Assembly (NCBI GenBank): GCA_037440005.1
Contig: JBBIUY010000004.1
Coordinates: 23,673-87,672 of the forward strand
Direction: 5' to 3'
Origin: Armatimonadota bacterium
GTDB lineage: Bacteria > Sysuimicrobiota > Sysuimicrobiia > Sysuimicrobiales > Kaftiobacteriaceae
DNA: 64,000 nt
Shown here: in pieces, positions 5,841-32,222 of the stretch
How the letters are laid out: every line of letters starts with the position of its first letter
Position numbering within the stretch: the stretch's first letter is position 1
Program-made: the position numbers and the translations under genes
Notes under the pieces: generated by a model
The model's database searches: none
What the model was told of the DNA's origin: nothing
What the model saw: the letters and a program-made list of their open reading frames with translations, nothing else

Positions 5841-5841
5841 C

Positions 5842-16235: not shown

Positions 16236-16262
16236 CGGACGGCCGCTGGATGGCCACCGGGA

Positions 16263-16841: not shown

Positions 16842-17028
16842 GCCGCCTCACCCCCCGACCGATCCTTTCCGACGACACTTCGATCGACCGGACCCTCCCG
16901 CCTGCCGGGGAGGGAGCCCGGGCCGACAGGGGATCCGGCTCGGGCGGGCGCCCGTTCCCATCGGTCCTCGGCCTGATGGCAAGGGTCGGAGCGCGCTCTT
17001 AGAGTGAAGATGGCGAACCCGGCGGGAG

Positions 17029-18765
17029 GTGGCCATGGGGCTGCGCAGCCGGATCATGCTCCTGGTGGCGATCGGCCTGGTCGCCGCCACGGCGCCCCTG
17101 GGGATCATGGGCCTGCTGATGGTGCAGGCGGCCACGGACCGGGTCCTGGAGGAACGGCTCGCCACGACCCGGACCGTGGCCGCCCACCTGAGCGAACGGC
17201 TGGCCCAGGGGTGGGCCCACCTGAAGTGGATCGCGTCCAGGGCTGCGTCCACCGGGGGCCGGGGGCTGGCCGACCTGGACGCCGGCCCCCCCGCGGGAGT
17301 TCTGACGGGGGGCATAGCGGTGGTGGATGGCCGCGGCCGCCCCCTCGCCGGCGTGCTCAGGTCGGGCGGCCTCCTGGAGGCCGGGGCATGGGTCGTCCGG
17401 GAGGCGCTCCGCACCGGGCACCCCCGGATCAGCCCCCTGGTGCGTGCCCGCGATGCGGCCGGCGTCCTCCTGGTCGTGCCGGTGACATCTCCCGGCGGGG
17501 CGGTGACGGGCGCCGTGGTGGGGGTCGTCGATCTGACCGGCCCGGTCCTGCGGAACTTCGTCGCCGGCCTGGCCCAGGGGGCGACCGGCCACGCCGTGGT
17601 GGTGGACCGGGACGGCACGGTCCTGGCCAGCACCCGGGACGAAGATCTGTTCACCCGCAGCGAGCACCCGGAGTTCTTCGCCCGGCTGATTTCCGGCGGA
17701 CGGCCCCTGGTGGCCCCGGCCGAGAAGGTCTCCACGTCCCGCGGGAGCAGGGAGACCCACGTGATGGCCTTTGCGCCGGTGGCGGGCGCTCCGTGGGGAG
17801 TCGGCGTCGGCCAGGACGACCGGGAGACCTTCGGCCCCCTACGCCGCCTGCGGGACCGCATCATCGTGTTCGAGGTCCTGGTCCTGGCGGTCGCCCTGGG
17901 GTTTGCCTGGCTGGACACCGGGGCCGTCAGCGCGCCCCTGCGGGCGCTGACCGTCGCCACCGAGCGTATCGCCGGCGGCGACCTCAGCCAGTCCATCGAC
18001 GTCCGCCGCACCGACGAGATCGGGGATCTGGGTCGCAGTTTCGAGGTCATGCGGCAGAGGCTGCTGCGCTCGCTGGACGAGAACGCCCGGCTGCAGGAGC
18101 GGCTGCTGTCGGTGGCCGTGCTGGAAGAGCGGGAGCGCATCGCCCGGGAGATGCACGACCACGTGGGACAGGTCCTGGGCTACGTGAACACCAAGGCGCA
18201 GGCGGTGCGGGCGCTGGTGGAGGCCGGGCGGCTGGAGGAGGCCCGCCGTCAGCTGTCCCAGCTGGAGGAGGCGGTGCGGGAGGTCTACGCCGACCTGCGG
18301 GAGGCGATCCTCAGCCTGCGGACGGCGCCCGCTCCCGGCCGACCGCTGGCCCAGGCGCTCCGGGAGTACGCCCTGCGGTTCAGCGAGATGAGCGGGATCC
18401 CCGTGGAGGTGGCCATCGAGGCCGACGGGGCCCTCAGCCGCCTGACGTCCACCGCGGAGCTGCACCTCATCCGTATCGTCCAGGAGGCCCTCACCAACGT
18501 CCGCAAACACGCCCGGGCCCGTCGGGCGTGGGTGCGGTGCGCGTGCCGGGGAGACGAGCTGGTGGTGAGCGTCGCCGACGACGGGGTGGGGTTTGACCCC
18601 GGCGGTCCCCACGGCGGGATCCGATTCGGGGTGTCGTCCATGCGCGAGCGCGCGGAGGCCGTGGGGGGCGCGCTGGCCATCCGGTCCGCCCCCGGAGCCG
18701 GGACCGAGGTGGAGGTCCGTCTGCGGATCGGGAGGGAGCCCGATGCGCGTGCTGCTGGCCGATGA
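17029..18765 (+). CDS. Sensor histidine kinase (NarX/HisKA_3-type) with periplasmic sensor domain and HAMP
   Basis: 578 aa. Two TM helices flank a ~250-aa extracytoplasmic domain. HAMP linker, then H-box EERERIAREMHDHVGQ (HisKA_3) and HATPase_c. Confidence 0.85.
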   Translation: MAMGLRSRIMLLVAIGLVAATAPLGIMGLLMVQAATDRVLEERLATTRTVAAHLSERLAQGWAHLKWIASRAASTGGRGLADLDAGPPAGVLTGGIAVVDGRGRPLAGVLRSGGLLEAGAWVVREALRTGHPRISPLVRARDAAGVLLVVPVTSPGGAVTGAVVGVVDLTGPVLRNFVAGLAQGATGHAVVVDRDGTVLASTRDEDLFTRSEHPEFFARLISGGRPLVAPAEKVSTSRGSRETHVMAFAPVAGAPWGVGVGQDDRETFGPLRRLRDRIIVFEVLVLAVALGFAWLDTGAVSAPLRALTVATERIAGGDLSQSIDVRRTDEIGDLGRSFEVMRQRLLRSLDENARLQERLLSVAVLEERERIAREMHDHVGQVLGYVNTKAQAVRALVEAGRLEEARRQLSQLEEAVREVYADLREAILSLRTAPAPGRPLAQALREYALRFSEMSGIPVEVAIEADGALSRLTSTAELHLIRIVQEALTNVRKHARARRAWVRCACRGDELVVSVADDGVGFDPGGPHGGIRFGVSSMRERAEAVGGALAIRSAPGAGTEVEVRLRIGREPDARAAGR

Positions 18766-19390
18766 CCACGCCCTGTTCCGGGACGGGATCCGCAGCCTGC
18801 TGGAAGCCCGGGGCGTGGAGGTGGTGGGGGAGGCCGGCGACGGGCAGGAGGCGGTGGAGGCCGCGCTCCGGCTGCGGCCGGACGTGATCCTGATGGACGT
18901 GACCATGCCGCGCATGGACGGACTGGACGCCACGCGGCACATCACGGCGCGCCTGCCGCAGGCGACGGTGGTGATGCTCACCGTCTCCGACGACGACCGC
19001 ACCCTGTTTGAGGCCCTCAAGAGCGGCGCCCGGGGCTATTTGCTCAAGAACCTGCGGGCCGAGGAGTTCTTTGAGCTGCTGGCCGGCATCGAGCGCGGCG
19101 AGCCCGCCCTCTCGCCCCGCCTGGCGGGCCGCATCCTGGAGGAGTTCCGCCGGAGCCGGAGGGCGCCCGACCGCCCGGACGCCGACGACCTGACCGAACG
19201 GGAGTTGGAGGTCCTGCGGCTGCTCAGCCAGGGCGCCAGCAACCGAGAGATCGCCGCGGCGTTGCACATCTCGGAGAACACCGTCAAGTTTCACATCAAG
19301 AACATCCTGGACAAGCTCCACCTGCGCAACCGGGCCGAGGTGGTGGCCTACGCCGCGCGCCGGGGGTGGTTGCCGCCCGGCCCGCCGTAG
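18743..19390 (+). CDS. NarL/LuxR-family response regulator
   Basis: Receiver domain MRVLLADDH...DVTMPRMDG plus a LuxR HTH (LTERELEVLRLLSQGASNREIAAALHISENTVKFH). Overlaps the kinase by 23 nt. Confidence 0.9.
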   Translation: MRVLLADDHALFRDGIRSLLEARGVEVVGEAGDGQEAVEAALRLRPDVILMDVTMPRMDGLDATRHITARLPQATVVMLTVSDDDRTLFEALKSGARGYLLKNLRAEEFFELLAGIERGEPALSPRLAGRILEEFRRSRRAPDRPDADDLTERELEVLRLLSQGASNREIAAALHISENTVKFHIKNILDKLHLRNRAEVVAYAARRGWLPPGPP

Positions 19391-19514: not shown

Positions 19515-20207
19515 ATGACCTCGACGCGTCTTCCACGACCGCCCCGGCGGCGGGCGCCCGTCCTCCGGCCCCCGGACGCCCGGGAGGACATCCTCCGCCA
19601 CCTGCCGTCGTCGGGCGGCCGCACCGTCCGCGAGCTGGCGCGCCTGGTCCGCCTGTCCCCGTCGGCGCTGCGTCAGCACCTGGCGTCTCTGGAGCGGGAC
19701 GGCCTGGTGGACAGGGCGGCGATCCGCGGGAAGCCGGGGCGGCCGGCGTTCGCATACCGCCGCGCGGTCCCCCCGGCCGGTCCGGTGCCCGCGGACCCGT
19801 CCCGGGTCCTCAGCACCCTGCTGCGGGTGGTGGAGGCCCAGGATCCGCGGCGCGTCGCCGAGATCGTGGACGGCGTGGTGGCGGCGCTGGAGGACGAGTA
19901 CGGGGCCGTCCGACAGATTTCCGATCCCGGCGCCCGCGTCCGCGCCGCCGCCTCGGTCCTGTTCGACGCCGAGGGGCAGGCGCAGGTCCGCGCCGCCGCC
20001 GACGGCTACGAGGTGAGCCTGCGCCGCTGCCCCCTGCTCCCGGCGGCGCGGGAGTCCCCGGCGTGCTGCGAGATCGCCCGGCGCCTGCTGGGCAGGCTCT
20101 CCGGGGCCGAGGTGGAGCAGCGGGAGTCGCTGCTGCGAGGGGACCCGCGGTGCCTGTTCGTGCTGCGGGTGCCGCCGGCGTCCCGACATCTGGCGGAGGC
20201 GGGGTAA
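19515..20207 (+). CDS. Winged-helix (ArsR-like) transcriptional regulator with Cys-rich C-terminal domain
   Basis: 230 aa. HTH region VRELARLVRLSPSALRQHLASLERDGLV. C-terminal CPLLP...CCEIARRLL...RCLF cysteine cluster. Lies immediately upstream of the oxidase operon. Confidence 0.55.
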   Translation: MTSTRLPRPPRRRAPVLRPPDAREDILRHLPSSGGRTVRELARLVRLSPSALRQHLASLERDGLVDRAAIRGKPGRPAFAYRRAVPPAGPVPADPSRVLSTLLRVVEAQDPRRVAEIVDGVVAALEDEYGAVRQISDPGARVRAAASVLFDAEGQAQVRAAADGYEVSLRRCPLLPAARESPACCEIARRLLGRLSGAEVEQRESLLRGDPRCLFVLRVPPASRHLAEAG

Positions 20208-20213
20208 GGGCCG

Positions 20214-20939
20214 ATGACGCGGCACGCGGGATGGGTGGTCCTGCTGTGGGTGGTCCTGACCGCCCTGGGCCTGGTGGGGGCCGCGCGGGTGGACCTGCTG
20301 CCGGTGGCCGCCGCCCGGGAGGCCCGCATTATCGACGACGCCTTCCGGTTCCTGATGCTGCTGGCCGTGCCGGTGTTCACCTTCGTGCTGGCCGTCCTGC
20401 TGTACGCCGTCGCCGCCTTCCGCGCCCGCCGGGAACCTCCGGAGGACGGGCCCCCGCTGTGGGGGCGGTCGGCGGTGCCGTGGGTCTGGCTGGCGGTCAC
20501 CAGCGCCCTGGCCGTGTACGTGATCGTCAATCCGGGACTGCGGGGTCTGGCCGAGCTGCGGTCCGACCGACACGCGGACCTGGTGGTGCGGGTGGAGGGG
20601 TCCCGGTGGGTGTGGCGGTTCGTCTATCCCGAGTCGGGCGTCACCAGCCGCGAGCTGGTCCTGCCGGTGGGCCGGCGGGTGCGGTTCGACGTGACCGGGG
20701 TGGACGTGGTGCACTCCTTCTGGGTCCCGGCGTTCCGGGTGAAGGTGGACGCGGTGCCCGGAATGACGACCTCCGTGTACGTGACGCCCACCCGGACCGG
20801 AGATCAGGCCGGTGATGTGAATTTCCGGGTCCAGTGCGCCGAGCTGTGCGGCCTGGGCCACCACCTGATGGCCGCGCCGGTGCGGGTGGTGGATCCCGGG
20901 GCGTTCGAGGCGTGGGTGGCCGGGGGCCGGTCGCCCTAG
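20214..20939 (+). CDS. coxB: Cytochrome c oxidase subunit II (CuA, no cytochrome c domain)
   Basis: 241 aa with two TM helices. CuA ligands VHSFWVP ... QCAELCGLGHHLM (H...C-x-E-x-C-x3-H-x2-M). Confidence 0.9.
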   Translation: MTRHAGWVVLLWVVLTALGLVGAARVDLLPVAAAREARIIDDAFRFLMLLAVPVFTFVLAVLLYAVAAFRARREPPEDGPPLWGRSAVPWVWLAVTSALAVYVIVNPGLRGLAELRSDRHADLVVRVEGSRWVWRFVYPESGVTSRELVLPVGRRVRFDVTGVDVVHSFWVPAFRVKVDAVPGMTTSVYVTPTRTGDQAGDVNFRVQCAELCGLGHHLMAAPVRVVDPGAFEAWVAGGRSP

Positions 20940-20981
20940 CCGGAGGCGGCGCGGCCGGGGGGAGACGTTTGCCGATCCGGC

Positions 20982-22829
20982 GTGGCGAGAGGTGAGCGGT
21001 CCGTGCGAGCGATCGTGCGCGGGATAGGGTGGGGGGCGGCCGGCTTCGCGCTGGGCGCCCTGGCGGCGACGGCGGCCGGGTGGGCGGCGGGGCGTCCGCC
21101 GCGGGCCGAGGTCCTGGTGACCCTCGGGTACGTCGCCGGGCTGACCGGCTGGCTGCTGGGCGTCGGCCTGTGGGACGCCTGGGCCCGGGGGTGGTTCGGG
21201 CTCCCCGTCCGCCACGAGCCCGATCACACGTGGCGGCGCTACTTCCGGTTCACCACCGACCACAAGGTCATCGGCGTGCAGTACCTGGTGACCTTCGTGG
21301 TGCTGTTCGTTCTGGCCGGGGCGATGGCGCTGGTCATGCGGGTGGAGTTGGCGGCCCCGGGGCCGACGGTGATGAGCGCCGGCGCCTACACCCACCTGAT
21401 GAGCCTGCACGGCATCATCATGATCGCCGTGGCGGTGGCCACCATCCTGGGGGGGTTCGGCAACTACCTGGTGCCGCTCATGATCGGGGCCGAGGACATG
21501 GCCTTCCCGCGCCTGAACGCCCTCAGCTACTGGCTGGTGCCGCCGGTGGCCGTCCTGCTGGTGGCCACGCCGTTGGCCGGGGGGTTCGACACCGGGTGGA
21601 CCGCCTACCCGCCCCTCAGCGAGGTCAACGCCAGCGGCCAGGTCCTGTTCAACCTGGCGGTGATCACCTTCGGGCTGTCCTCCATCCTGGGCGGGATCAA
21701 CTTCCTGGCCACCATCGTGGGCCTGCGGGCGCCCGGGATGACCTGGCGGCGGCTGCCCATCTTCGTGTGGGCGGTGTTCGCGGCGTCGCTGATCAGCGTC
21801 ACCGCCACCCAGTACCTGGCGGCGGGGCTGCTGATGGTCCTGCTGGACCGGGAGGCGGGCATGGCGTTCTTCGCCGCGGCCCGGGGCGGCATGCCCCTGC
21901 TGTACCAGCACATCTTCTGGTTCTACTCGCACCCGGCGGTGTACATCATGATCCTGCCCGCCTTCGGGCTGGCCCTGGAGGTTCTGACCCACTTCTCCCG
22001 CAAACCCCTGTACGCCTACCCCTGGGTGGTGGGGGGATTTCTGGGGATCGTGGGGCTCAGCTTCGTGGTGTGGGCGCACCACCTGTACACCAGCGGCATG
22101 CGGGAGTCGCTGCTGGGGCCGTTCATGGCCACCACCGAGCTCATCTCCATCCCCACCGGGCTGGTGTTCCTGGCCGCCCTGGGGACGCTGTGGATGGGCC
22201 GGCTGTGGCTGCGGACGCCGATGCTGTTCGCCCTGGGGTTTCTGTTCAACTTCCTCATCGGGGGCGTGACCGGCATCTTCAACGCCGACGTGCCCACGGA
22301 CCTGCACCTGCAGGACACCTACTTCGTGGTCGGGCACTTCCACTACACCATCGTGGGCGGGATGATCTTCGCCCTGTTCGCCGGCCTGTACTACTGGTTC
22401 CCCAAGATCACCGGGCGGATGTACGACGAGCGGCTGGGCCGGGTGCACTTCTGGTGGATGTTCCTGGCCTACAACGCCACCTTCCTGCCCATGTTCTGGG
22501 CGGGGGTGCACGGGATGAACCGGCGCATCGCCGACTACCCGGCCCCCCTGGCCGGGGTGAACCTGTGGATCTCGGCGATGGCCGTCGTGCTGGGGGCCAG
22601 CGTCGTGGTGTTCCTGTGGAACGCGGTGGCCAGCTGGATCCGCGGGCCGCAGGCCGCGGCCAACCCCTGGGGCGCCCGCACCCTGGAGTGGCAGGTGCCC
22701 TCGCCCCCGCCCGAGGGCAACTTCCCCCACCCGCCCCGGGTGGTGGGCGACCCCTATGCCTACGGGGTGCCGGGAGCCGCGCACGCCGTGGTGGCCGCCG
22801 CCGGCGGGGCCGGGGAGGGAGGGGGGTAA
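20982..22829 (+). CDS. coxA: Cytochrome c oxidase subunit I (A-type heme-copper oxidase)
   Basis: 615 aa with GFGNYLVPLMIGAEDMAFPRLN and conserved His ligands. It has a ~70-aa N-terminal extension, so the start codon is uncertain (GTG 20982). Confidence 0.9.
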   Translation: MARGERSVRAIVRGIGWGAAGFALGALAATAAGWAAGRPPRAEVLVTLGYVAGLTGWLLGVGLWDAWARGWFGLPVRHEPDHTWRRYFRFTTDHKVIGVQYLVTFVVLFVLAGAMALVMRVELAAPGPTVMSAGAYTHLMSLHGIIMIAVAVATILGGFGNYLVPLMIGAEDMAFPRLNALSYWLVPPVAVLLVATPLAGGFDTGWTAYPPLSEVNASGQVLFNLAVITFGLSSILGGINFLATIVGLRAPGMTWRRLPIFVWAVFAASLISVTATQYLAAGLLMVLLDREAGMAFFAAARGGMPLLYQHIFWFYSHPAVYIMILPAFGLALEVLTHFSRKPLYAYPWVVGGFLGIVGLSFVVWAHHLYTSGMRESLLGPFMATTELISIPTGLVFLAALGTLWMGRLWLRTPMLFALGFLFNFLIGGVTGIFNADVPTDLHLQDTYFVVGHFHYTIVGGMIFALFAGLYYWFPKITGRMYDERLGRVHFWWMFLAYNATFLPMFWAGVHGMNRRIADYPAPLAGVNLWISAMAVVLGASVVVFLWNAVASWIRGPQAAANPWGARTLEWQVPSPPPEGNFPHPPRVVGDPYAYGVPGAAHAVVAAAGGAGEGGG

Positions 22830-22835
22830 TCGCTC

Positions 22836-23042
22836 ATGGGCCGGGCGGACATCGGGGCGCGGCTGCGGGTGGGCACGCGGGCGCTGGTCACCCTGCTAAT
22901 CCTGACCGCGGTGGAGGTGCCGGTGGCGTTCCGGGTGCCTCGCCCGCTGCCGTGGCTGATCCTGCTCAACCTGGCGGACGCGGCGCTGATCGTCTGGTAC
23001 TTCATGCACATCGCCGACCTGTGGCGTCCGGGGGAGGACTGA
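22836..23042 (+). CDS. Cytochrome c oxidase subunit IV (CtaF-like small subunit)
   Basis: 68 aa, two TM helices, sited between the subunit I and subunit III genes. Confidence 0.55.
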   Translation: MGRADIGARLRVGTRALVTLLILTAVEVPVAFRVPRPLPWLILLNLADAALIVWYFMHIADLWRPGED

Positions 23043-23044
23043 CG

Positions 23045-23611
23045 GTGGCCGCCCACGTTGCCGCACACCCCCGCTACCGCCGGCTGGACCTCCGCCGGCT
23101 GGGCCTGTGGCTGTTCCTGCTGTCGGAAGGGTTCCTGTTTTCCGCCCTGATCGCCGCCCGCTACTACCTGCTGGGCCTGCAGCGGCCCGAGGGGCTCAAC
23201 CAGCCTCTGGGGCTGGCCATCACCGTGGTGCTGCTGGCCAGCAGCCTCACCGCCTACCGCGCCGAGACCGCCATCGCCGGGGGGGACCGGCCGCTGTTCC
23301 TGCGCAACACCCTGGCCACGGTGGCCCTGGGCCTGCTGTTCCTGGCGGGGGTGGGGGTGGAGTGGGCGCAGGCGTTCGCCCACTTTCCCCCGACCCGGCC
23401 GGTGGGCACCGTCTTCTTCACCCTGACCGGCATGCACGCCCTGCACGTCCTCAGCGGCGTGGTCCTGCTGGCCGGCGTGTACCTGCACGGCCGCCGCGGA
23501 CGGTACGGCCCCGGGGCCTTCTGGCCGGTGGAGGGCGCGGTCAAGTACTGGCACTTCGTGGACGTGGTGTGGGTCTTCATCTACCCCACCCTGTACCTGG
23601 TCACCGCCTGA
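23045..23611 (+). CDS. coxC: Cytochrome c oxidase subunit III
   Basis: 189 aa with a GTG start 3 nt after the subunit IV stop. Conserved HFVDVVWVFIY C-terminal motif. Confidence 0.85.
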   Translation: MAAHVAAHPRYRRLDLRRLGLWLFLLSEGFLFSALIAARYYLLGLQRPEGLNQPLGLAITVVLLASSLTAYRAETAIAGGDRPLFLRNTLATVALGLLFLAGVGVEWAQAFAHFPPTRPVGTVFFTLTGMHALHVLSGVVLLAGVYLHGRRGRYGPGAFWPVEGAVKYWHFVDVVWVFIYPTLYLVTA

Positions 23612-23760
23612 CCGTCCCGCTCTGGCCCCCTCCAGGCCACGTCCCCTCCGCCGGGACTCCCTACCCGGCCGGGTAGGTGGCCGGACTACCCGCACGGGCG
23701 TTGTGCCCCGCCGTCTGCCCGGACTACCCTGGCGTCGGGCCGGTGGCCCGGAGGGGAGCC

Positions 23761-24216
23761 GTGGAGCGGCGCGCCGACGGAATCGTGTACTTCGCCCTGG
23801 CGGTGGCCGTGGTCGCCCTGGCGGTCAGCCTGCTGGCGTACGCCCGGCGGGCCCGGCCGGAGGCCGGCCCGCCGCCGCGGGCCGCCGCCACCCTCACCCT
23901 CTCCATGGTGGTGGCGACCTTCACGGGTCCGGGCATGGCCGCCCACCGGTGGTACCCCACCATGCTGGTGGCGCGGGTGGGAGACACCATCGACCTGGCC
24001 GTGGCGAACCCCGACACCTTCGCCCACCAGCTGGAGGTCACCGGCTACAACCTGCGAACCCGCCGGCTGGCTCCCGGCGCCAGCGACGACCTGCGCTTTG
24101 TGGCCGACCGGCCCGGCGTGTTCGTGTACCGGTGCGTCCTCCCCCACAACCCGGCGGCCGGGGAGTGCACTCCGGACCACGAGCAGATGCGTGGGTACCT
24201 CATCGTAACCGAGTGA
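23761..24216 (+). CDS. Membrane-anchored cupredoxin A (CuA-like ligand pattern)
   Basis: N-terminal TM IVYFALAVAVVALAV. Upstream His (FAHQLEV) and loop YRCVLPHNPAAGECTPDHEQMRGYLIV, i.e. C...C-x3-H-x2-M. GTG 23761 preferred over GTG 23677 because a GGAGGGGAG RBS precedes it. Confidence 0.55.
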   Translation: MERRADGIVYFALAVAVVALAVSLLAYARRARPEAGPPPRAAATLTLSMVVATFTGPGMAAHRWYPTMLVARVGDTIDLAVANPDTFAHQLEVTGYNLRTRRLAPGASDDLRFVADRPGVFVYRCVLPHNPAAGECTPDHEQMRGYLIVTE

Positions 24217-24677
24217 TGGGTATGGACGGCGTCCGGTCGGCGGTGGCGGGGCTCACCGTGGGGGTCTCGCTGGTCGCCCTGGGGATCGGCGGGCTGGCCC
24301 TGCTGGCCTCCGCCCCGGCGGCACCGCCGCCAGAGCGCGTGGACCTGGAGCTGCTCATCACCGGCCGGGGCGCCATCGGGGGGCCGGCCGAGAGCCACCT
24401 GTTCGACCCCCAGATGCTGGTGGTGCGCCGGGGGGACACCGTGCGGCTGCGGGTGATCAACCTGTCCCACTTCCGTCACGGCCTGGAGTTCGCCGGCCTG
24501 GGCGTGCGCACCGCCGCGCTGCCCGGCGGGGCGGCGGACGTGGTGGAGTTTGTGGCGGCACGGCCGGGGATTTTCGAGTACCGGTGCTATTTGCCCCACG
24601 ATCCGGCCACGGGCACCTGCGCCCCCGACCACGACCGGATGGTGGGGCACCTGGTGGTGGTGGAGGGACGGCGGTGA
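24216..24677 (+). CDS. Membrane-anchored cupredoxin B (paralogue of A)
   Basis: TGATG overlap with cupredoxin A. TM GLTVGVSLVALGIGGLALL. FRHGLEF ... YRCYLPHDPATGTCAPDHDRMVGHLVV. Confidence 0.55.
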   Translation: MGMDGVRSAVAGLTVGVSLVALGIGGLALLASAPAAPPPERVDLELLITGRGAIGGPAESHLFDPQMLVVRRGDTVRLRVINLSHFRHGLEFAGLGVRTAALPGGAADVVEFVAARPGIFEYRCYLPHDPATGTCAPDHDRMVGHLVVVEGRR

Positions 24678-24720
24678 GAGGACGCGGGAGATTTACGAGC
24701 CCCTCGGGGAGGTGAGGAGG

Positions 24721-25185
24721 ATGCGGGGACGGACGGCGCTGGTTGTGGGCGTGGTGGCGGTCCTGCTGGCCGTCGGGCCGGCGGCGGGCGCGCCCAAGGC
24801 CCAGAAGGTCACGGTGGTGCTCAACGAGATGAGCTTCACGCCCGCCCGGGTGACGGTGACGGCCGGCACGCCGGTGCAGCTGACCCTGGTCAACCGGGGC
24901 AAGCAAAAGCACGAGTTCATGGTCTACACGCCGCCCCGGACGGCGCTGGCCGGAGACGAGCTCGAAGAGTGGGCCAAGGAGAACTCGTACTTCAAGGGCC
25001 TCGAGGTAACCGTGGAGACCGCCGGCGTGGAGATCGGGGCGGAGGCCCTGATGGAGGTCGAGGTGGGGCCGGGCCGGTCCGCCGAACTGACGTTCACGCC
25101 GCGGCGGACGGGGACGTTCGAGATGGGCTGCCACCTGGAAGGCCATTACGAGGCGGGGATGAAGGGGACGTTTGTGGTCCGTTGA
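24721..25185 (+). CDS. Secreted azurin/auracyanin-type blue copper protein (cupredoxin C)
   Basis: Signal peptide MRGRTALVVGVVAVLLAVGPAAGA. Ligand set KHEFMV (His) ... GCHLEGHYEAGMKGTFVV (C-x4-H-x4-M), with the same ligand spacing as azurin. Confidence 0.7.
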   Translation: MRGRTALVVGVVAVLLAVGPAAGAPKAQKVTVVLNEMSFTPARVTVTAGTPVQLTLVNRGKQKHEFMVYTPPRTALAGDELEEWAKENSYFKGLEVTVETAGVEIGAEALMEVEVGPGRSAELTFTPRRTGTFEMGCHLEGHYEAGMKGTFVVR

Positions 25186-25201
25186 CGCCGGGAGGACACC
25201 C

Positions 25202-25645
25202 ATGAACGGTCGCGGGGCGCTGCTGTTCGCCGGGAGCTTTGCGGTGGTGCTCACCGCCCTGGCCGGGTACGTGGTGGTGCGGTCCTACGCGCCTCCCGCC
25301 TCGGCGGCGCCTCCCGTCGTGCCCGAGGTCCGGCAGTTCGACCTGTGGCTGCACGTCCTGGAGGCCGCCGACGCCTCGGTGCGCCACTGGGTCCCGCCCG
25401 TGCTGGTGGTGAACGCGGGCGACACCGTCATCCTGCGGGTGCACAACGGCGACCCGGACACCGCCCACGGCTTTGCCCTGGGCGCTTTCAACCTGACGGT
25501 CCCCACCATCCCGCCCGGGCAGACGGCGACGGTGCGCTTTGTGGCGCGGCGGCCCGGGATCTACCACTACGGGTGCGCCGCCGCCGGGTGCGCGCCGGAC
25601 CACGCCGGGCAGACCGGCCAGCTGGTGGTGCTGGGAGGGCGGTAG
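25202..25645 (+). CDS. Membrane-anchored cupredoxin D (paralogue of A/B, Gln in axial position)
   Basis: TM LLFAGSFAVVLTALAGYVVV. AHGFALGAF ... YHYGCAAAGCAPDHAGQTGQLVV (C-x4-C-x3-H-x2-Q). GGGAGGA RBS. Confidence 0.55.
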   Translation: MNGRGALLFAGSFAVVLTALAGYVVVRSYAPPASAAPPVVPEVRQFDLWLHVLEAADASVRHWVPPVLVVNAGDTVILRVHNGDPDTAHGFALGAFNLTVPTIPPGQTATVRFVARRPGIYHYGCAAAGCAPDHAGQTGQLVVLGGR

Positions 25646-26548
25646 GTGGCCCTCACGCGGCGGTCGTTCCTCAAGGCGCTGGCCGCGGGAGCGGCGGCGC
25701 TGACGGCGGGCCCCCTGACCCGGTGGCGGCGCGGCCGGCCGGTGCCGGCCCTGGTGGCCCGGCCGGGAGGCGGACACGCCCTGGCGCGGCTGGAGGCCGT
25801 GCCGTCGGGCGGGGGCGTGGCCCTGGCCTACGCCGCGGAACCGCCGGCGCCGGAGCCGGGCGGTGCGCCGGGACGGCGGTGGGTGATGGTCATCGACCTG
25901 GCCCGCTGCGACGGCTGCCGCGAGTGCACCCGGGCCTGCCAGGCGATGCACGTCGTCCCCGCCGGCCAGGAGTGGATCCGGGTGTACGAGCTGCAGGACC
26001 ACGAGGCCGGCGCCCCCTACTGGTTTCCCCGGCCGTGCATGCAGTGCGACAACCCGCCCTGCGTGAAGGTCTGCCCGGTGTCGGCCACCTGGAAGCGGGA
26101 GGACGGCATCGTGATGCAGGACACCTCCCGCTGCATCGGGTGCCGGTTCTGCATGGCGGCCTGTCCCTACCAGGCCCGCAGCTTCAACTGGGTGGACCCC
26201 GACGTGCCCGGCATGCCCGACGAGCCGTACTCCATGGAGTGGAACCGGGTGCACCGGCGGGGTACCACCGAGAAGTGCATCTTCTGCCCCGCGCTGGTGG
26301 CCGAAGGCCGGCTGCCCGCCTGCGCGGCCGCGTGCCCCATGGGGGCCATCTACTTCGGCGACCAGCAGGAGGACGCCGTGACCAACTCCCAGGGGGAGAC
26401 GGTGAGGTTCTCCGAGCTGGTCCAGGGCCAGGGGGGGTACCGCTTCCTGGAGGAGCTGGGCACCGAGCCCCGGGTCTACTACCTGCCCCCGCGGCGGCGC
26501 CTGTACCCGGCGCCCGTCCCCGCGGCGGCGGCGGAGGACCAGCGGTGA
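25646..26548 (+). CDS. TAT-exported 4x[4Fe-4S] ferredoxin-type subunit (NrfC/PsrB/ActB2-like)
   Basis: GTG start directly after the cupredoxin D stop. Twin-arginine signal RRSFLKALAAGAAA. Four Cys clusters: CDGCRECTRAC, CMQCDNPPCVKVCP, CIGCRFCMAACP, CIFCP...CAAACP. Confidence 0.85.
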   Translation: MALTRRSFLKALAAGAAALTAGPLTRWRRGRPVPALVARPGGGHALARLEAVPSGGGVALAYAAEPPAPEPGGAPGRRWVMVIDLARCDGCRECTRACQAMHVVPAGQEWIRVYELQDHEAGAPYWFPRPCMQCDNPPCVKVCPVSATWKREDGIVMQDTSRCIGCRFCMAACPYQARSFNWVDPDVPGMPDEPYSMEWNRVHRRGTTEKCIFCPALVAEGRLPACAAACPMGAIYFGDQQEDAVTNSQGETVRFSELVQGQGGYRFLEELGTEPRVYYLPPRRRLYPAPVPAAAAEDQR

Positions 26549-28104
26549 GGGCCCGGGACGACCTGCTTGCGGACCGGGAGCGGCGGCTGCTGCGCTCGCT
26601 CCACGCCGGAGGACCCGGCTACTACGCGCTGCTGGGCGTGCTGGGGGCCCTGGTGGCGTGGGGGGTGATCGGCTACGGCGTCCAGCTCCGCTACGGCCTG
26701 GGCGTGACCGGGCTGCGGGACAACGTCATGTGGGGCGTGTACATCACCAACTTCATCTTCTTCATCGGGGTCAGCCACGTGGGGGCGCTGATGTCGGCCA
26801 TCCTGCGCATCACCGGGGCCGAGTGGCGCCGGCCGATCACCCGCATGGCGGAAGCGATCACCTTCGCCTCGCTGCTCATGGGGGCGTTGATGCCCCTGGT
26901 GGACATGGGCCGGCCGGACCGGCTTCTCAACCTGGTGGCGCACGGCCGACTGCAGTCCCCGATCCTGTGGGACATCCTGTCCATCACCACCTACCTGACC
27001 GGCAGCACCCTGTTCCTGTACGTGCCCATGATCCCCGACATCGCCCTGCTGCGGGACCGGTTCGCCGCTGGGCCGCCCTGGCGCCGGCGGCTGTACACGG
27101 TGCTGGCCCTGGGGTGGCGGGGGACGGAGGTGCAGCGCCGACACCTGGAGGCGGTCATGGGGATCCTGGCCATCCTGATCATCCCCATCGCCGTCTCCGT
27201 GCACACGGTGGTGTCCTGGATCCTGGCCATGACCTTGCGGGCGGGCTGGAACAGCACCATCTTCGGCCCCTACTTCGTCTCCGGCGCGCTGTTTTCCGGC
27301 GCGGCGGCGGTGGTCACCGCCATGGCGGCCTTCCGGTGGGCCTACCACCTGGAGGACTACATCACCGAGGCGCACTTCCGGCGGATGGGCTACCTGGTCA
27401 TCGCCCTGGGGCTGATCTACGGCTACTTCACCTTCAACGAGTACTGGGTGCCGGCGTTCAAGATGGCGGCCCACGAGCGCGGGTACCTGACGGCGGTGTT
27501 CAGCGGGCGGTTTGCCCCCCTGTTCTGGTTCACCCAGGTGGGCGGACTGCTGTTGCCCGTGGCGCTGCTCACCGTCCCCCGGCTGGCCCTGGTGGAGCGC
27601 CTGGGCCGCGTGCCCCTGCTGCGGCCCGCGCCCGCCCTGGCGGCCACCGCCGCCGCGGTGGGGCTGGTGGTGGTCGCCGCCCCGGGCTCGCCGGTGGCCG
27701 CCCTGCCCGACGTCGGCGCCCTGCGCCCGCTGATCCCCTGGCTTCTCGGGACGGCGGGGAGCTGGCTGTTCCTGGCCCTGCTGCCGGTCTGCCGTGCCCG
27801 GCCCATCGCCACGGCCACGGCGGCCTCCGTCCTGGTGAACGTGGGAGCGTGGTGGAAGCGGTACGTCATCATCGTCCCCACCCTGCAGCACCCGTTCCTG
27901 CCCATCCAGCGCGCGCCGGCGGGGTGGGCCACCTACACGCCCACGTGGGTGGAGTGGTCCATCACGTCGGCGGCCCTGGCGGGTTTCGTGCTGATCTACC
28001 TCCTGTTCAGCAAGCTGTTCCCCATCGTGTCCCTGTGGGAGACCCGGGAGGCTCCGCCGGAGGCCTCAGGAGGCGGGGAGGTGGCCCATGCGCTGGCCCG
28101 GTAG
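26545..28104 (+). CDS. NrfD/PsrC/ActC-like polytopic membrane (quinol-interacting) subunit
   Basis: 519 aa with about 10 TM helices. GTGA overlap with the ferredoxin gene. NrfD-family features run throughout. Confidence 0.85.
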   Translation: MRARDDLLADRERRLLRSLHAGGPGYYALLGVLGALVAWGVIGYGVQLRYGLGVTGLRDNVMWGVYITNFIFFIGVSHVGALMSAILRITGAEWRRPITRMAEAITFASLLMGALMPLVDMGRPDRLLNLVAHGRLQSPILWDILSITTYLTGSTLFLYVPMIPDIALLRDRFAAGPPWRRRLYTVLALGWRGTEVQRRHLEAVMGILAILIIPIAVSVHTVVSWILAMTLRAGWNSTIFGPYFVSGALFSGAAAVVTAMAAFRWAYHLEDYITEAHFRRMGYLVIALGLIYGYFTFNEYWVPAFKMAAHERGYLTAVFSGRFAPLFWFTQVGGLLLPVALLTVPRLALVERLGRVPLLRPAPALAATAAAVGLVVVAAPGSPVAALPDVGALRPLIPWLLGTAGSWLFLALLPVCRARPIATATAASVLVNVGAWWKRYVIIVPTLQHPFLPIQRAPAGWATYTPTWVEWSITSAALAGFVLIYLLFSKLFPIVSLWETREAPPEASGGGEVAHALAR

Positions 28105-28609
28105 CGCCGCGCTGCTGGCGGCGCTGGCGCTCACCGCCTCCGCCGCTTCCGCCGCCGCGCGCCTCCACCTGGTCCTCGCGCCCGAGGAGGGGGGAGGACT
28201 GCAGGTGGTGGCCGTGGTGACGGACGCCCCGGGGAGCCCCCGGGAGGGAATCCCGGTGACCTTCCGCGCCCGCACCGCCTTCGGCTGGCTTCCCCTGGGG
28301 GAGGGGGTCACCGACGCCTCCGGGCGCGCGGTCCTGCCGCTGCCCGCGGGCGCGCCGTACCCGGAGATCGAGGCACAGACCGCCGACGACCCGCCGGCCC
28401 GGGCCGTGCTGGCGCTGGACCGCCGCGCGGCCGCACAGCCCGCCGTCCGCCCCGGCCGGCGGACCCTGCACGCCCTCAGCCCGCAGCCGGGCCTGATCAG
28501 CCCGTACCCCGTGCCCCCGCTGGCGCTGTTGGGGGTCCTGGTGGGCGCCATTTGGGCCACCTACGGGTACATCGTGTTCCTGCTCACCCGCATCGCCGCC
28601 GGACGCTGA
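28088..28609 (+). CDS. Small secreted, C-terminally anchored subunit with Ig-like/CarboxypepD_reg-like domain (candidate third subunit of the NrfCD-like module)
   Basis: 173 aa, overlapping the NrfD-like gene by 17 nt. Signal peptide, a GIPVTFRARTA...TDASGRAVLPL beta-rich domain and a C-terminal TM. A truncated paralogue lies at 9140..9376. Confidence 0.5.
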   Translation: MRWPGSAALLAALALTASAASAAARLHLVLAPEEGGGLQVVAVVTDAPGSPREGIPVTFRARTAFGWLPLGEGVTDASGRAVLPLPAGAPYPEIEAQTADDPPARAVLALDRRAAAQPAVRPGRRTLHALSPQPGLISPYPVPPLALLGVLVGAIWATYGYIVFLLTRIAAGR

Positions 28610-28657: not shown

Positions 28658-29308
28658 TCAGGGCTCGATGAGGCCTTTGCGGATGGCGTAGCGGACCAGT
28701 TCGGTGCGGTCGTGCAGCCCCAGCTTCTCCAGGATGTGGGCCCGGTGGGTCTGCACGGTCTTGATGCTGATGAACAGGCGCTCGGCGATCTGCTGGTTGG
28801 ACAGGCCCTGGGCGATGAGGGTGAGGATCTCCTTCTCCCGCTCGGTCAGGCCGTCGTAGCGGTCCCGCTCCTCCCCCGCTTCCACCCTCTTGAGGTAGTC
28901 CTCCACCACCTTGCGGGCCACCGACGGGTACAGGAAGGCCTCCCCCCGGGCCGCGGCGCGCACCGCCTGCACCAGGTCGGAGGCGGCGGCCCGCTTGAGG
29001 ACGTAGCCCGACGCGCCCGCCCGCAGCAGCTGGAAGACGTAGGACTCGTCCTCGTGCATGGTCAGGGCGAGCACCGCCACGGCGGGGTGGCGCTCCTTCA
29101 GCCGGTGGGTGGCCTCGATGCCGCCCATGCCCGGCATGCTGATGTCCATGATCACCACGTCGGGCCGCAGGCGCTCCACCAGCTCCAGGGCCTGCCGGCC
29201 GTCTCCCGCCTCCCCCACCACCTCGATGTCCTTCTCCCGGGCCAGGATCATGCGCACGCCCTCGCGGACGATGGCGTGGTCGTCGGCGATGAGGACTCTA
29301 ATTGCCAT
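28658..29308 (-). CDS. NarL/LuxR-family response regulator
   Basis: Receiver domain (RVLIADDHAIVREG...DISMPGMGG) plus a LuxR HTH. Confidence 0.9.
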   Translation of the reverse strand: MAIRVLIADDHAIVREGVRMILAREKDIEVVGEAGDGRQALELVERLRPDVVIMDISMPGMGGIEATHRLKERHPAVAVLALTMHEDESYVFQLLRAGASGYVLKRAAASDLVQAVRAAARGEAFLYPSVARKVVEDYLKRVEAGEERDRYDGLTEREKEILTLIAQGLSNQQIAERLFISIKTVQTHRAHILEKLGLHDRTELVRYAIRKGLIEP

Positions 29309-31031
29309 CGGGCCCGACCTCCACCGGGATGACGGCCTCGATGCGGGTCCCCGCCTGGGGCCGGGAGGTGATCTTCCACGTCCCCCCCAGCAGTTCCGTC
29401 CGCTCCTGCATGCCCATCAGCCCCAGCCCCCGGCCGTCTCCCGCCCGGGGCACGGCCTGGGGGTCGAAGCCGCGGCCGTCGTCGGCCACCGACAGGCGCA
29501 CCTGCCCGTCGGACAGGGTGACGGCCACCCAGGCCCGGCGGGCGTCGGCGTGCTTGAGGATGTTGGTCAGGGCTTCCTGGACGATGCGGAAGACCGCTGT
29601 CTCGATGTGGTGGGGCATGCGCTCGTCCAGGCCCGTCAGGGCCAGATCCACCTGCAGGCCCTGGGGCTCCACGTGCTCCTTCACGTACCAGCGGATGGCC
29701 GCCGCCAGCCCCAGGTCGTCCAGGATGGTGGGGCGCAGGTCGTAGATCATCTTCCGCAGCTCCCGCAGGGTGTCCTCGGCGATGGCCCGCAGGCGGCTCA
29801 GGCGCTGCTGCTCCGGCGGCGCGGCCGAGCGCTCGGCCACCTCCAGGTTGAGGATGAGGGCGGTGAGGGCCTGACCCGCCTCGTCGTGGAGCTCCCGGGC
29901 GATGCGGCGGCGCTCGTCCTCGTGGGCGGTGATGAGCTTCTGCAGCAGTTCGCCCCGCATCACCTCCTTGGCCCGCACCTCCTCGTACAGCCGGGCGCGC
30001 TCGGCCGCCAGCCCGATCTGGTCGCCGATGGCGGACAGGGTGGCCAGCTCCCGGCTGGTGAGGGTGCGCCGCCGGGGCAGGACCAGGTTCATCACACCGA
30101 TGACGCCGCCGGCGGTGCGCAGGGGCACCGTCACGTGGCGGGGAACCTCCCACCCCGCCTGTTCCAGCCGCTCGCAGTGGATGACGTTCACGGCCGCCTC
30201 CAGCTGGCCGCCGCGCAGCATCTGCAGGCAGCGGCAGTCTCCCCCCATGGCGGCCATACCGGAGGCGGCCAGCTCCAGGGGGAGGTTCTTGGTGGCGGCC
30301 ACGGTGAAGTCGCCGTCCCGCCGCAGGTACACCCAGCCGCTGGTCAGGCGCATCAGGTCCACCAGCAGGTCCAGCGCCCGGCTCACCGCGCTGTGGACGT
30401 CCAGAGAGCGGTTGAGGGACTCGGCGATGGCGCTCATGGTGACCAGGTCCCGGGTGCGCTGCAGCGCCAGCAGGACGATGCCGATGCTGAACAGCAGGGT
30501 GAACATGCCCGAAAACGCCGCCCCCACCCCCGCCAGGGCCGGGTGAGGCCGCAGCAGGGGGTAGGCCAGCGCCAGCAGCCCGGTCAGCAGCAGCCCCCAG
30601 AACAGCAGCCGGGCGCTGGTGGTCTGCAGGCCCCGTTCCTGGCCGTACAGCAGCCCGGCGCTGCCGGCAAACGCCGCTCCGCCCAGCAGCGAGGCCACCA
30701 CCGCGGCCGCGGTCCAGGACGTGCCGGCCAGGACGGCGGAGGCCACGACCCCCGCCCCCGCCAGGACCGTGGCCCGTCGGTCGGGCCGGAAACTCTGGAC
30801 CATGGCCCACGCCGAGGCCAAAAACAGCCCGTGCCGCACCGAGACCAGGATGCTGGAGGGGGCGAGGGTGAGCAGGGTCTCAGCCACCACGTGGGCGGCG
30901 AAGAGGGCGTAGGCGACGGCCCACCACCCGATCTGCCGCTCGCGCCCTTCCAGGTACCGCAGCAGTAAAAACAGGGTCAGGGCCAGGTGGATGCCAACGC
31001 CGACCGCCAGGGCCCCCGTCAGAACCGTCAC
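29298..31031 (-). CDS. Sensor histidine kinase with ~6-TM N-terminal sensor, GAF domain, HisKA_3 and HATPase_c
   Basis: 577 aa. H-box DERRRIARELHDEAGQ. GAF region with CRCLQML. Overlaps the response regulator by 11 nt. Confidence 0.85.
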   Translation of the reverse strand: MTVLTGALAVGVGIHLALTLFLLLRYLEGRERQIGWWAVAYALFAAHVVAETLLTLAPSSILVSVRHGLFLASAWAMVQSFRPDRRATVLAGAGVVASAVLAGTSWTAAAVVASLLGGAAFAGSAGLLYGQERGLQTTSARLLFWGLLLTGLLALAYPLLRPHPALAGVGAAFSGMFTLLFSIGIVLLALQRTRDLVTMSAIAESLNRSLDVHSAVSRALDLLVDLMRLTSGWVYLRRDGDFTVAATKNLPLELAASGMAAMGGDCRCLQMLRGGQLEAAVNVIHCERLEQAGWEVPRHVTVPLRTAGGVIGVMNLVLPRRRTLTSRELATLSAIGDQIGLAAERARLYEEVRAKEVMRGELLQKLITAHEDERRRIARELHDEAGQALTALILNLEVAERSAAPPEQQRLSRLRAIAEDTLRELRKMIYDLRPTILDDLGLAAAIRWYVKEHVEPQGLQVDLALTGLDERMPHHIETAVFRIVQEALTNILKHADARRAWVAVTLSDGQVRLSVADDGRGFDPQAVPRAGDGRGLGLMGMQERTELLGGTWKITSRPQAGTRIEAVIPVEVGPDGN

Positions 31032-31136
31032 ACCCTCTATCGTACACAGTCCGCCCGGGGGTTGTCTTCCGGCTGGTGGACCGCCGCCGGGGGCCTGGGG
31101 ATCGGCCCGGCATGCGGGGAGGGGACCGCCCGGTCC

Positions 31137-31349
31137 TCAGCCCGCCCGCCGCAGCGGACGCGCCGGGTCGGGGACGGTCGGCGTCGGGGGAAGGGTCCGG
31201 CGGTCCAGGACGGCGATGAGGGGGTACCCGCACCGGGGGCAGGCGCCGCCCGGCGTGGGGACGAAGACGGCCCCGCAGTGGGGACAGATGGCCAGATCGC
31301 CGGGGCGGGGGCGCCGCGGCCGGTCCGCCGGCAGTGCCATGCGCGCCAC
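31137..31349 (-). CDS. Possible small zinc-ribbon protein
   Basis: 70 aa with CPHCG...CPRCG. No clear RBS was checked; called with low confidence. Confidence 0.3.
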   Translation of the reverse strand: MARMALPADRPRRPRPGDLAICPHCGAVFVPTPGGACPRCGYPLIAVLDRRTLPPTPTVPDPARPLRRAG

Positions 31350-31547
31350 CTCCGTTCCCGCTCCTCTTCCAGTGTACTCCGGCCGTTCCGGCCCGGCCCA
31401 TCGGGCCTCCGCCCGAGGGTCCCCTCATCCGCCGACGCCCTAATCCGGCTCCCGCCCGATGGCCCCGCGGGGACGGGCGGCCGTATGCTGCTGGTACGGA
31501 TGCGGAGCGCACCCAGCGCGCAGGCGCCGGACCGGCGGGGTGAGGAG

Positions 31548-32222
31548 ATGAGCAGGGCGACGCAGGCCGTGTCCCCCATCCGGATCCTGATCGCCGACGA
31601 CCACGCCGTCGTCCGCGAGGGGATCCGCATGATCCTGGAGTCCGAGCCGGATTTCGAAGTGGTCGGGGAAGCCACCACCGGCCGGGAGGCGGTGGACCTG
31701 GTGCGGCGGGTGCGCCCGCACGTGGTGGTCATGGACATCAGCATGCCACAGATGAACGGCGTGGAGGCCACCCGAGAGATCCGCCGGATCAGCCCCGAGA
31801 CCCACGTGCTCATCCTGACCATGCACGAGGACGAGTCCTACGTCTTCCAGCTGCTGCAGCTGGGGGCGGCGGGCTACGTGCTCAAGCGGGCCGCCGCCTC
31901 GGACCTGGTGGAGGCGGTGCGGGCGGCGGCGCGGGGCGAGGCGTTCCTGTACCCCTCGGTGGCCCGGAGCGTAGTGCAGGACTACCTGGAGCGGCTGCGC
32001 GCGGGCGAAGGGCGGGACCGGTACGACGGCCTGACCGAGCGGGAACGGGAGATCCTGGTCCTGCTGGCCGAGGGCCTGACCAACGCCCAGATCGCCGAGC
32101 GGTTGTTCATCAGCGTCAAGACGGTGCAGACCCACCGGGCCCACATCATGGAGAAGCTGGACCTCCACGACCGGGCCCTGCTGGTCCGCTACGCCATCCG
32201 CAAGGGGCTGATCCAGGCCTGA
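31548..32222 (+). CDS. NarL/LuxR-family response regulator, close paralogue (~75% identical) of the 28658..29308 product
   Basis: IRILIADDHAVVREGIRMIL...DISMPQMNG and the same LuxR HTH C-terminus. It is divergent from the GAF kinase operon. Confidence 0.9.
   Translation: MSRATQAVSPIRILIADDHAVVREGIRMILESEPDFEVVGEATTGREAVDLVRRVRPHVVVMDISMPQMNGVEATREIRRISPETHVLILTMHEDESYVFQLLQLGAAGYVLKRAAASDLVEAVRAAARGEAFLYPSVARSVVQDYLERLRAGEGRDRYDGLTEREREILVLLAEGLTNAQIAERLFISVKTVQTHRAHIMEKLDLHDRALLVRYAIRKGLIQA

Follow-up and report, generated by a model that had tools for sequence, protein, structure and literature searches.

Candidate CuA-like cupredoxins encoded with an iron-sulfur/NrfD-type pair in Sysuimicrobiota

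The cupredoxin gene cluster

The DNA considered here (the window) is a stretch of 64,000 nucleotides, ~73% G+C, from contig JBBIUY010000004.1 of an Armatimonadota bacterium (Sysuimicrobiota in the GTDB lineage; assembly GCA_037440005.1), and all positions given for it are counted from its first letter. Our subject is a module of seven genes that encode, in order, four cupredoxins (proteins A, B, C and D), an iron-sulfur (FeS) subunit exported by the twin-arginine translocation (TAT) pathway, an integral membrane subunit of the NrfD family and a small Ig-like protein (Table 1). We give a probability of about 0.55 to the reading in which A, B and D, with probable CuA-like two-copper centres, and C would together form the copper "wire" of a heme-free quinol:cupredoxin oxidoreductase. 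The module belongs to a tight row of plus-strand genes, 19515-28609, that opens with an ArsR-type regulator, closes with the Ig-like gene and looks like one operon from the spacing of its junctions. Those between A and B, D and the FeS gene, the FeS and NrfD-type genes, and the NrfD-type and Ig-like genes all overlap or abut, in the manner of translational coupling, while the start of C lies 44 nucleotides past the stop of B, the start of D lies 17 nucleotides past the stop of C, and 150 bp separate coxC from A. A scan for promoters and terminators found nothing. The CoxB protein encoded ahead of the module has the CuA loop CAELCGLGHHLM and lacks a cytochrome c domain. An earlier sequence-only reading of this DNA, made by a model, had placed four cupredoxin genes with their copper-binding motifs at 23761-25645, and all of them were found there on the plus strand.

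Table 1. Genes of the cupredoxin module and of the operon and sensory system upstream of it (positions in the window)
Feature	Position	Strand	Remarks
dCache-HAMP-HisKA_3 sensor kinase and LuxR-type response regulator	17035..18765 (kinase); 18743..19390 (regulator)	+	
aa3-type oxidase operon	20214..23611	+	coxB 20214-20939, coxA 20982-22829, coxD-like 22836-23042, coxC to 23611
Protein A, 151 amino acids (aa): N-terminal transmembrane (TM) anchor and cupredoxin domain	23761..24216	+	GTG start, ribosome-binding site GGAGGGGA
Protein B, 153 aa: TM anchor and cupredoxin domain	24216..24677	+	ATG overlapping the A stop as TGATG
Protein C, 154 aa: Sec signal peptide and predicted type-1 (blue) copper protein	24721..25185	+	
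Protein D, 147 aa: TM anchor and cupredoxin domain	25202..25645	+	FeS gene always directly downstream
TAT-exported iron-sulfur subunit, 300 aa	25646..26548	+	start codon abuts the D stop; Pfam Fer4_11, TAT_signal
NrfD-family integral membrane subunit, 519 aa, ActC type	26545..28104	+	overlaps the FeS stop (ATGA); Pfam NrfD
Small Ig-like (Big_1-like) protein, 173 aa	28088..28609	+	weak Pfam Big_1; closing gene of the module

The four copper proteins

The candidate ligands of the anchored cupredoxins lie at H89, C125, C136, H140 and M143 in A and at H88, C124, C135, H139 and M142 in B, both of which read C-x10-C-x3-H-x2-M, and at H89, C125, C130, H134 and Q137 in D, which reads C-x4-C-x3-H-x2-Q; each of the three proteins has only these two Cys. 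The proposal that A, B and D are paralogues, each with an N-terminal TM anchor, is borne out by sequence comparisons far beyond chance (E values of 1e-32 for A and B, 1e-17 for A and D, and 1e-14 for B and D) and by AlphaFold2 models of B and D (predicted local distance difference test scores of 91.5 and 92.5), in which an N-terminal helix of residues 2-28 and 3-28, respectively, is followed by a beta-sandwich. The Greek-key beta-sandwich of the cupredoxin fold is common to all three, and protein C is only marginally related to them (C against D, E 8e-4).

Close homologues of B and D come from "Armatimonadota"/CSP1-3 (Sysuimicrobiota) metagenome bins, and they keep the motifs with great regularity. 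The pattern C-x10-C-x3-H-x2-X occurs in all 120 homologues of B (X is Met in 117, Ile in two and Gln in one) and C-x4-C-x3-H-x2-X in 90 of the 91 homologues of D (Gln in 89, Met in one), the single D homologue without the motif appearing to be frame-shifted; C-x10-C-TPDH-x2-M is retained in the orthologues of A at L001, L003, L008 and L017 (L-numbers denote the loci of relatives and P-numbers, used below, the proteins matched in a representative library). The axial Gln that the sequence-only reading had pointed out in D is thus confirmed as Q137, and the absence of the extra Cys from homologues, which it had named as a finding that would count against it, is not what these families show: both Cys are kept in the same 120 B and 90 D sequences and throughout the 44-sequence alignment described below. 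Two further His residues were considered as additional ligands and rejected, since the one inside the loop of A and B (LPH, at C+4) is replaced by Tyr in 96 of 120 homologues and the one in the YHYGC segment of D (at C-3) is found in only 65 of 90. A disulfide joining the two Cys is unlikely, because with only two Cys per protein it would leave the copper without a thiolate. A Rieske-like 2His/2Cys FeS site was set aside, as the fold and the order of the ligands are those of CuA, and a NirK-like nitrite reductase was rejected because each protein is a single domain in which the type-2 His beside the Cys (HC) is absent. It is most likely, judging from these conserved residues, that A, B and D each bind copper through two invariant His, two invariant Cys and a weak axial residue that varies.

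Protein C, by its sequence, is a secreted type-1 copper protein. Its ligands are H64, C137, H142 and M147, it scores above the Pfam cutoffs for Cupredoxin_1 (PF13473, 55 bits against 27) and Copper-bind (PF00127, 28.9 bits against 21.2), and among the four proteins it is the only one to combine the ligand set of type-1 blue copper proteins with a family score of this kind. Its sequence matches in the PDB are weak and include 4hcf (Cupredoxin_1), auracyanin B (E 4.5e-4) and AcoP, and its gene adjoins that of D in all relatives. The description of C as a conventional type-1 site can be kept, but the likeness to azurin cannot: the azurin loop is C-x4-H-x3-M, whereas the C-x4-H-x4-M of protein C is that of auracyanin and rusticyanin.

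Descent of A, B and D from CuA-type proteins

As a reference for profile-profile alignment with hhalign, we used stand-alone single-domain proteins that carry the canonical C-x3-C-x3-H-x2-M loop (the n=3 family, where n is the Cys-Cys spacing). Both families align with this reference at a probability of 99.9%, the B family with an E value of 4e-32 and the D family with one of 2.4e-32; in both cases the His, Cys1, Cys2, His and Met/Gln positions fall in shared columns, and the sole difference is a gap between the two Cys, of 7 residues for the B family and of 1 residue for the D family. When 1.84 billion representative proteins were searched by profile, 1574 relatives were returned at E<1e-10, and a C-x(n)-C-x3-H-x2-X loop is present in 113 of the best 150 of them (n=3 in 39, n=4 in 17 and n=9-16 in 57, with X being Met, Gln, Ile or Leu), so that the nearest relatives of A, B and D form a continuum of Cys-Cys loop lengths. 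An alignment of 44 sequences of the long-loop class (n>=9), with a mean identity of 23%, has no invariant residues other than three Gly along with two His and two Cys; the axial residue differs among the sequences.

Several of the n=3 relatives and one n=4 relative exceed the Pfam COX2 cutoff, and A, B and D themselves have NCBIfam matches to the CuA domain of NosZ (those of A to Cupredoxin_1, NosZ-CuA and NirK being weak). Comparison of D by BLASTP with subunit II of the ba3 oxidase of T. thermophilus, in which the aligned ranges agree with 1ehk_B, gave an E value of 2e-10 and an identity of 31% and paired every one of the five ligand positions. The structural comparison that the sequence-only reading had recommended led to the same protein, ba3 oxidase subunit II being the top Foldseek match of D (7.5e-9). 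A BLASTP alignment of D with the window's own CoxB is insignificant (E 0.08), leaves out the ligand loop and speaks neither for nor against such descent.

Taken together, the ligand-for-ligand profile alignment, the n=3 relatives above the COX2 cutoff and the ba3 match support the view that A, B and D are CuA-derived by descent. The claim that they carry the full CuA ligand set holds in part, for the ligands occupy the same columns and the C-x3-H-x2-M half of the loop is exact, but the Cys-Cys spacing is 10 in A and B and 4 in D, as against 3 in CuA. That such a set occurs outside an oxidase subunit II is upheld, the three proteins being the products of small separate genes with orthologues in relatives that have no cox genes nearby. 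On the indirect grounds that both Cys are invariant, that a disulfide would abolish the thiolate and that two His, two Cys and a variable axial residue make up the CuA pattern, the site in A, B and D is probably a CuA-like two-copper centre with a loop between the Cys that is longer by 7 residues in A and B and by 1 residue in D.

The iron-sulfur, NrfD-type and Ig-like partners

The FeS subunit begins with the TAT signal TRRSFLK and contains 16 Cys in four groups of the CxxCxxCxxxC(P) type, which suggest four [4Fe-4S] clusters. It is related to NrfC, PsrB, DsrO and the C-terminal domain of ActB, as seen in PDB matches to PsrB (2vpw_B, 3.5e-29), ArrB and ActB (1e-24, over ActB residues ~780-1020) and in a score for NCBIfam DsrO (187.8 bits) that falls just short of the cutoff of 200. 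Together with its neighbour it has the composition of a two-subunit NrfCD/PsrBC module, Fer4_11 (72 bits) and NrfD (90 bits) both scoring above their Pfam cutoffs. The only PDB sequence matches of the membrane subunit are to ActC (6btm_C, 6f0k_C, 6lod_C and 8k9e_C, with E values of 5.6e-59 to 4.9e-53), which places it with the ActC/ActF-type NrfD subunits of Alternative Complex III (ACIII), and by analogy it is presumed to house the predicted quinol/quinone site. Other parts of ACIII have no counterpart here. No CxxCH-rich open reading frames (ORFs) that could stand for the multiheme ActA or the monoheme ActE occur in or near the cluster, the only long CxxCH-bearing ORF of the window lying at 209-2083, and in place of the fusion of molybdopterin-like and FeS parts found in ActB there is an FeS domain only, without a molybdopterin Pfam domain.

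The Ig-like protein has a signal or TM segment and a conserved C-terminal TM helix (IWATYGYIVF...), and its gene follows the NrfD-type gene at L001, L003, L008, L009, L013, L014, L027, L028, L032, L037, L040 and L048. In P0272/L049 it is fused to a D-type cupredoxin, which supports a physical association of the two. We note separately that some archaeal Ig-like subunits (L027:8484-9593, L028:8419-9354 and the N-terminus of P0272) have an extra N-terminal cupredoxin-like domain of the form NPH...C-x3-C-x2-M-E-N-L, in which two Cys are kept and the loop His is absent, a further variant of the site.

Distribution of the module

The seven-gene order A-B-C-D-FeS-NrfD-Ig is kept in other Sysuimicrobiota (L001, L003) that have no adjacent cox genes, and the cox operon stands ahead of the module only in close relatives of the window. 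A dCache two-component pair is found between B and C at L001 and upstream of A at L003. Beyond this phylum, a gene for a long-loop or D-type cupredoxin directly flanks genes for TAT-FeS, NrfD and Big_1-like proteins at L027, which is archaeal (33% GC, with aEF-2 above the equivalog cutoff), and the same association of cupredoxin, TAT-FeS, NrfD and Big_1-like genes recurs in Caldarchaeales (L028-L031), in a metagenome-assembled genome of Symbiobacteriaceae (L048) and on the contigs L032, L037, L040, L041 and L049, with the genes in either order. Several bacterial phyla (Sysuimicrobiota, Bacillota) have the module, as do archaea (Caldarchaeales and others). In several Sysuimicrobiota a second, paralogous pair of FeS and ActC-like genes is present, at L008:9924-12531, L014:12449-14744, L012:1-2332 and L017:7464-9892, whereas the window has one pair.

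Proposed role and alternatives

By homology with ACIII and the Psr/Nrf systems, the NrfD-type subunit would take electrons from (mena)quinol on the outer side of the membrane; the periplasmic subunit would conduct them along its four FeS clusters to the copper proteins anchored in the membrane, probably D first and then A and B, and from there they would reach the soluble protein C. The adjacency of the genes suggests that C would in turn reduce the CuA of the aa3 oxidase, whose CoxB is not fused to a cytochrome c, and this oxidase is the presumed electron sink of the module. D is put first because its gene always abuts the FeS gene and because a Gln axial ligand should lower the potential, as Gln does in type-1 and in engineered CuA sites. 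The anchored copper proteins would stand in for the cytochromes of ACIII, and the module as a whole would be, by analogy, a functional heme-free and copper-based counterpart of complex III and Alternative Complex III. The sequence-only reading had thought of A, B and D as respiratory carriers, which is probably wrong, the conserved FeS and NrfD-type neighbours, which that reading had passed over, pointing to fixed, anchored subunits with C as the mobile carrier. A bolder form of the proposal would make the centres of A, B and D the first natural binuclear ones of the CuA type to have a Cys-x4/x10-Cys loop, and would have these proteins, with C, replace all c-type hemes in a respiratory enzyme not recognised before, a third kind of "complex III"; it is possible, though we lean against it.

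Several observations weigh against the proposed copper wire, and some of them also speak for a reading with a single copper. By strict standards of membership A, B and D fall outside the CuA family in their spacing, their Pfam scores and their lack of a host enzyme: they depart from the motif H-x(n)-C-x3-C-x3-H-x2-M in having 10 (A, B) or 4 (D) residues between the Cys and Gln for Met in D; against PF00116 (COX2, cutoff 22 bits) A has no match and B and D score 11.6 and 16.4 bits, with all three also below the 27-bit cutoff of PF13473 (19.8-24.2 bits); and their orthologues occur without cox genes or genes for nitric oxide reductase (nor) or nitrous oxide reductase (nos) nearby, so that they are not part of a heme-copper oxidase or of either reductase. 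To our knowledge every characterised CuA has a Cys-Cys spacing of 3, which makes spacings of 4 or 10 unprecedented, and a 10-residue spacer might prevent both thiolates from bridging two coppers. A and B could be tied to something else, since at L008 and L017 the second FeS/ActC pair stands next to them (at L017 they lie directly upstream of it) and they may belong to a complex other than that of C and D; the two sets may form two related complexes or, as in ACIII, a single one that contains two NrfD subunits. On the long contigs L025 and L035 an expanded-loop cupredoxin stands by itself, with no FeS or NrfD neighbours. Genes for CcmF (2586-4589, minus strand) and a CcmC-like protein (5094-5888, minus strand), which belong to system I of cytochrome c assembly, indicate that the organism makes c-type cytochromes, and copper is therefore not forced upon it as the only wire. 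Finally, we infer the direction of flow, the unity of the complex and its link to the oxidase from gene order only. Within the same module and the same role in electron transfer, A, B and D might each hold one copper, bound by Cys1, the two His and the axial Met or Gln in a type-1-like green or red site, with Cys2, in place of bridging two coppers, acting as a redox switch, lying in the second sphere or adding a fifth ligand. The best PDB sequence matches of A and D are N-domains of NirK, all three proteins fit the type-1 site of NirK just as well in phmmer alignments (Cys1, the His of the loop and the Gln of D falling on Cys136, His145 and Met150), and the best structural match of B is nitrosocyanin, a mononuclear red copper protein, the structural neighbours of B as a set favouring neither type of site. 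It counts against a single copper that Cys2 is as invariant as the ligands across relatives of 23% identity, that half of the loop is an exact match to CuA, that the canonical CuA motif is found in the nearest relatives by profile, from which the loops differ by insertion alone, and that among the ligands only the axial one varies, as a Cu2S2(His)2 core would predict; we regard this reading as unlikely, yet it deserves to be kept in mind.

The two-copper wire has also to be set against readings that change its direction or its purpose. The module could run backwards, as a cupredoxin:quinone reductase in which electrons from a periplasmic or external donor, such as Fe(II), a reduced sulfur compound or another oxidoreductase, pass from the copper proteins through the FeS subunit and the NrfD-type subunit to quinone, possibly driven by proton motive force. 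The related Qrc complex is a quinone reductase, weak NCBIfam matches to QrcC/QrcD and DsrO/DsrP are found, many genomes have the module without cox genes, and rhodanese and sulfur-transport genes flank it at L048. Cupredoxin and CuA potentials typically lie well above that of menaquinone, however, which would make the reduction of quinone strongly uphill, and among solved structures the membrane subunit comes nearest to the ActC proteins of the quinol-oxidising ACIII; as the module of the window moreover directly follows an aa3 oxidase operon, we hold a reversed flow to be improbable. More improbable yet is the idea that A, B and D are CupA-like copper chaperones or homeostasis proteins, with C being CopI-like, that serve the assembly of CuA in CoxB or copper resistance. 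It draws on the partial NCBIfam CopI matches of C (68.5 bits against a cutoff of 280), on the adjacent coxBACD genes and on the ArsR-type regulator and two-component systems nearby, but the invariant partners of the cupredoxins in bacteria and archaea alike are a TAT-exported 4x[4Fe-4S] protein and an NrfD-type subunit, not CopA, CusF, Sco or PCuAC, and the module exists without cox genes. The two invariant His and the CuA pattern also differ from the C...CxMxM of CupA; neither that C...C-x-M-x-M Cu(I) site nor a cop-operon context is found for A, B or D.

Variant modules and neighbouring genes

Some relatives carry other arrangements of CuA-type domains. In Ca. Thermofontivivens primus (L013:2581-4994, JAVKJW010000007.1) the positions of A and B are taken by two single-TM cupredoxins with the motifs RCSVICGNLHPFM and YCTVICSPEHTEM, both of the canonical CuA type and above the Pfam COX2 cutoff, which lie on either side of a membrane protein of 498 aa that contains Fer4_5 domains like those of NapH/NosH; oxidase subunit I is absent nearby, and the arrangement may be a second kind of quinol-to-CuA module. 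Among the library proteins, P0214, P0216, P0221, P0229 and P0236, which are of low GC and archaeal-looking, have cupredoxin domains with canonical CuA motifs repeated in tandem, two or three to a protein, and carry a TM helix at the C-terminus; P0229 is further fused to two cytochrome c (CxxCH) domains. Near the module some Sysuimicrobiota encode a further cupredoxin-like paralogue, which has just one Cys and lacks the loop His (C-x-x-H-x-P-T-M; L003:15096-15584, with the loop VNHQPTM, and L011:5510-6022, with SAHLPTM). Behind the module at one bacterial and one archaeal locus (L003:15920-16507 and L049:7502-8050; mutual E 9e-49) lies a gene for a polytopic membrane protein of 182-195 aa that ends in VPYGW and is absent from the window.

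The cluster in the window is bracketed by two HisKA_3/LuxR-type systems with dCache and GAF sensors and by an extra LuxR-type regulator (17035-19390, plus strand; 28658-31031, minus strand; 30987-32222, plus strand), and the dCache two-component pair accompanies the module in relatives. Farther upstream, at 14853-16847 on the minus strand, are genes for a DUF3795 protein, a VKOR-family protein and a 194-aa membrane protein without a Pfam match, and this trio or parts of it also lie upstream of the cupredoxin module at L001, L003, L005, L006 and L014. It is conceivable that the trio takes part in thiol/disulfide handling during the maturation of Cys-rich copper sites. The N-terminal part of a molybdopterin oxidoreductase (Fe4S4 and Molybdopterin domains) is encoded at 7427-8662 on the plus strand, and its frame may continue or break downstream.

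Novelty and significance

No account of a cupredoxin-NrfD module or of expanded-loop CuA proteins turned up in the searchable full-text literature, from which most subscription journals are absent, nor are they mentioned in the genome papers on Sysuimicrobiota, and the module is apparently undescribed. In databases, genes of the A, B and D types go under labels such as "plastocyanin", "oxidase subunit 2", "cupredoxin domain-containing" or "hypothetical", with the result that annotation passes over this part of the respiratory chain in these genomes. A large stand-alone family that has CuA ligands in loops of 4 to 16 residues would offer a series in which to test how loop length tunes a Cu2S2 centre, and the variation of its axial residue among Met, Gln, Ile and Leu would offer a further test of such tuning. 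If our reading is true, the pairing of ActC-like and FeS subunits with copper adds a heme-free member to the NrfD family and suggests a route from the quinone pool to terminal oxidases in some thermophilic bacteria and archaea.

Comparison with known systems

The closest counterparts of A, B and D are the CuA domains of nitrous oxide reductase and of subunit II of heme-copper oxidases, above all ba3 subunit II, which likewise consists of one N-terminal TM helix and a cupredoxin domain (~150-170 aa) with an upstream His of the HGF type and, at the corresponding point of the fold, the loop C...C-x3-H-x2-M. The differences are that A, B and D are free of an oxidase or nitrous oxide reductase catalytic subunit and are encoded with an FeS/NrfD pair, that the Cys are separated by 4 (D) or 10 (A, B) residues and not by 3, and that D has Gln in place of Met. 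By analogy the three proteins would nonetheless work like a CuA domain. We know of CuA only in oxidases, nitric oxide reductases and nitrous oxide reductase and in the PmoD dimer, always with a C-x3-C loop. Three further proteins, all of them among the structural matches, share some features with the anchored cupredoxins. AcoP of A. ferrooxidans, whose gene accompanies a cox operon, is a cupredoxin with a TM anchor and auracyanin is the blue-copper acceptor of an NrfD-type complex, but both are mononuclear and have a single Cys ligand. CupA of S. pneumoniae is TM-anchored with a cupredoxin fold in which two Cys hold a pair of Cu ions; it differs in having no His ligands and in being a Cu(I) chaperone of the cop operon.

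The FeS and NrfD-type subunits have their likeness in NrfCD, PsrBC, DsrOP and QrcCD, each of which joins an FeS protein to a cofactor-less membrane protein of the NrfD family, and in which the partners are molybdopterin enzymes or multiheme cytochromes, unlike those of the module. Copper and cupredoxins go unmentioned in a 2021 review of NrfD-like complexes (PMC8076601). With ACIII (ActABCDEF) the module has in common an ActC-like membrane subunit, a TAT-exported periplasmic FeS subunit related to the C-terminal domain of ActB and, in the window, a position next to an aa3-type oxidase operon, with C, whose loop is of the auracyanin type, as the likely acceptor. It differs in lacking the pentaheme ActA, the monoheme ActE and the molybdopterin-like N-domain of ActB, in having a single NrfD-type subunit in the window, in having copper proteins in the place of cytochromes and in the four [4Fe-4S] clusters suggested by its 16 Cys, as against one [3Fe-4S] and three [4Fe-4S] in ACIII. 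The module is therefore not ACIII, yet by analogy it would work like it.

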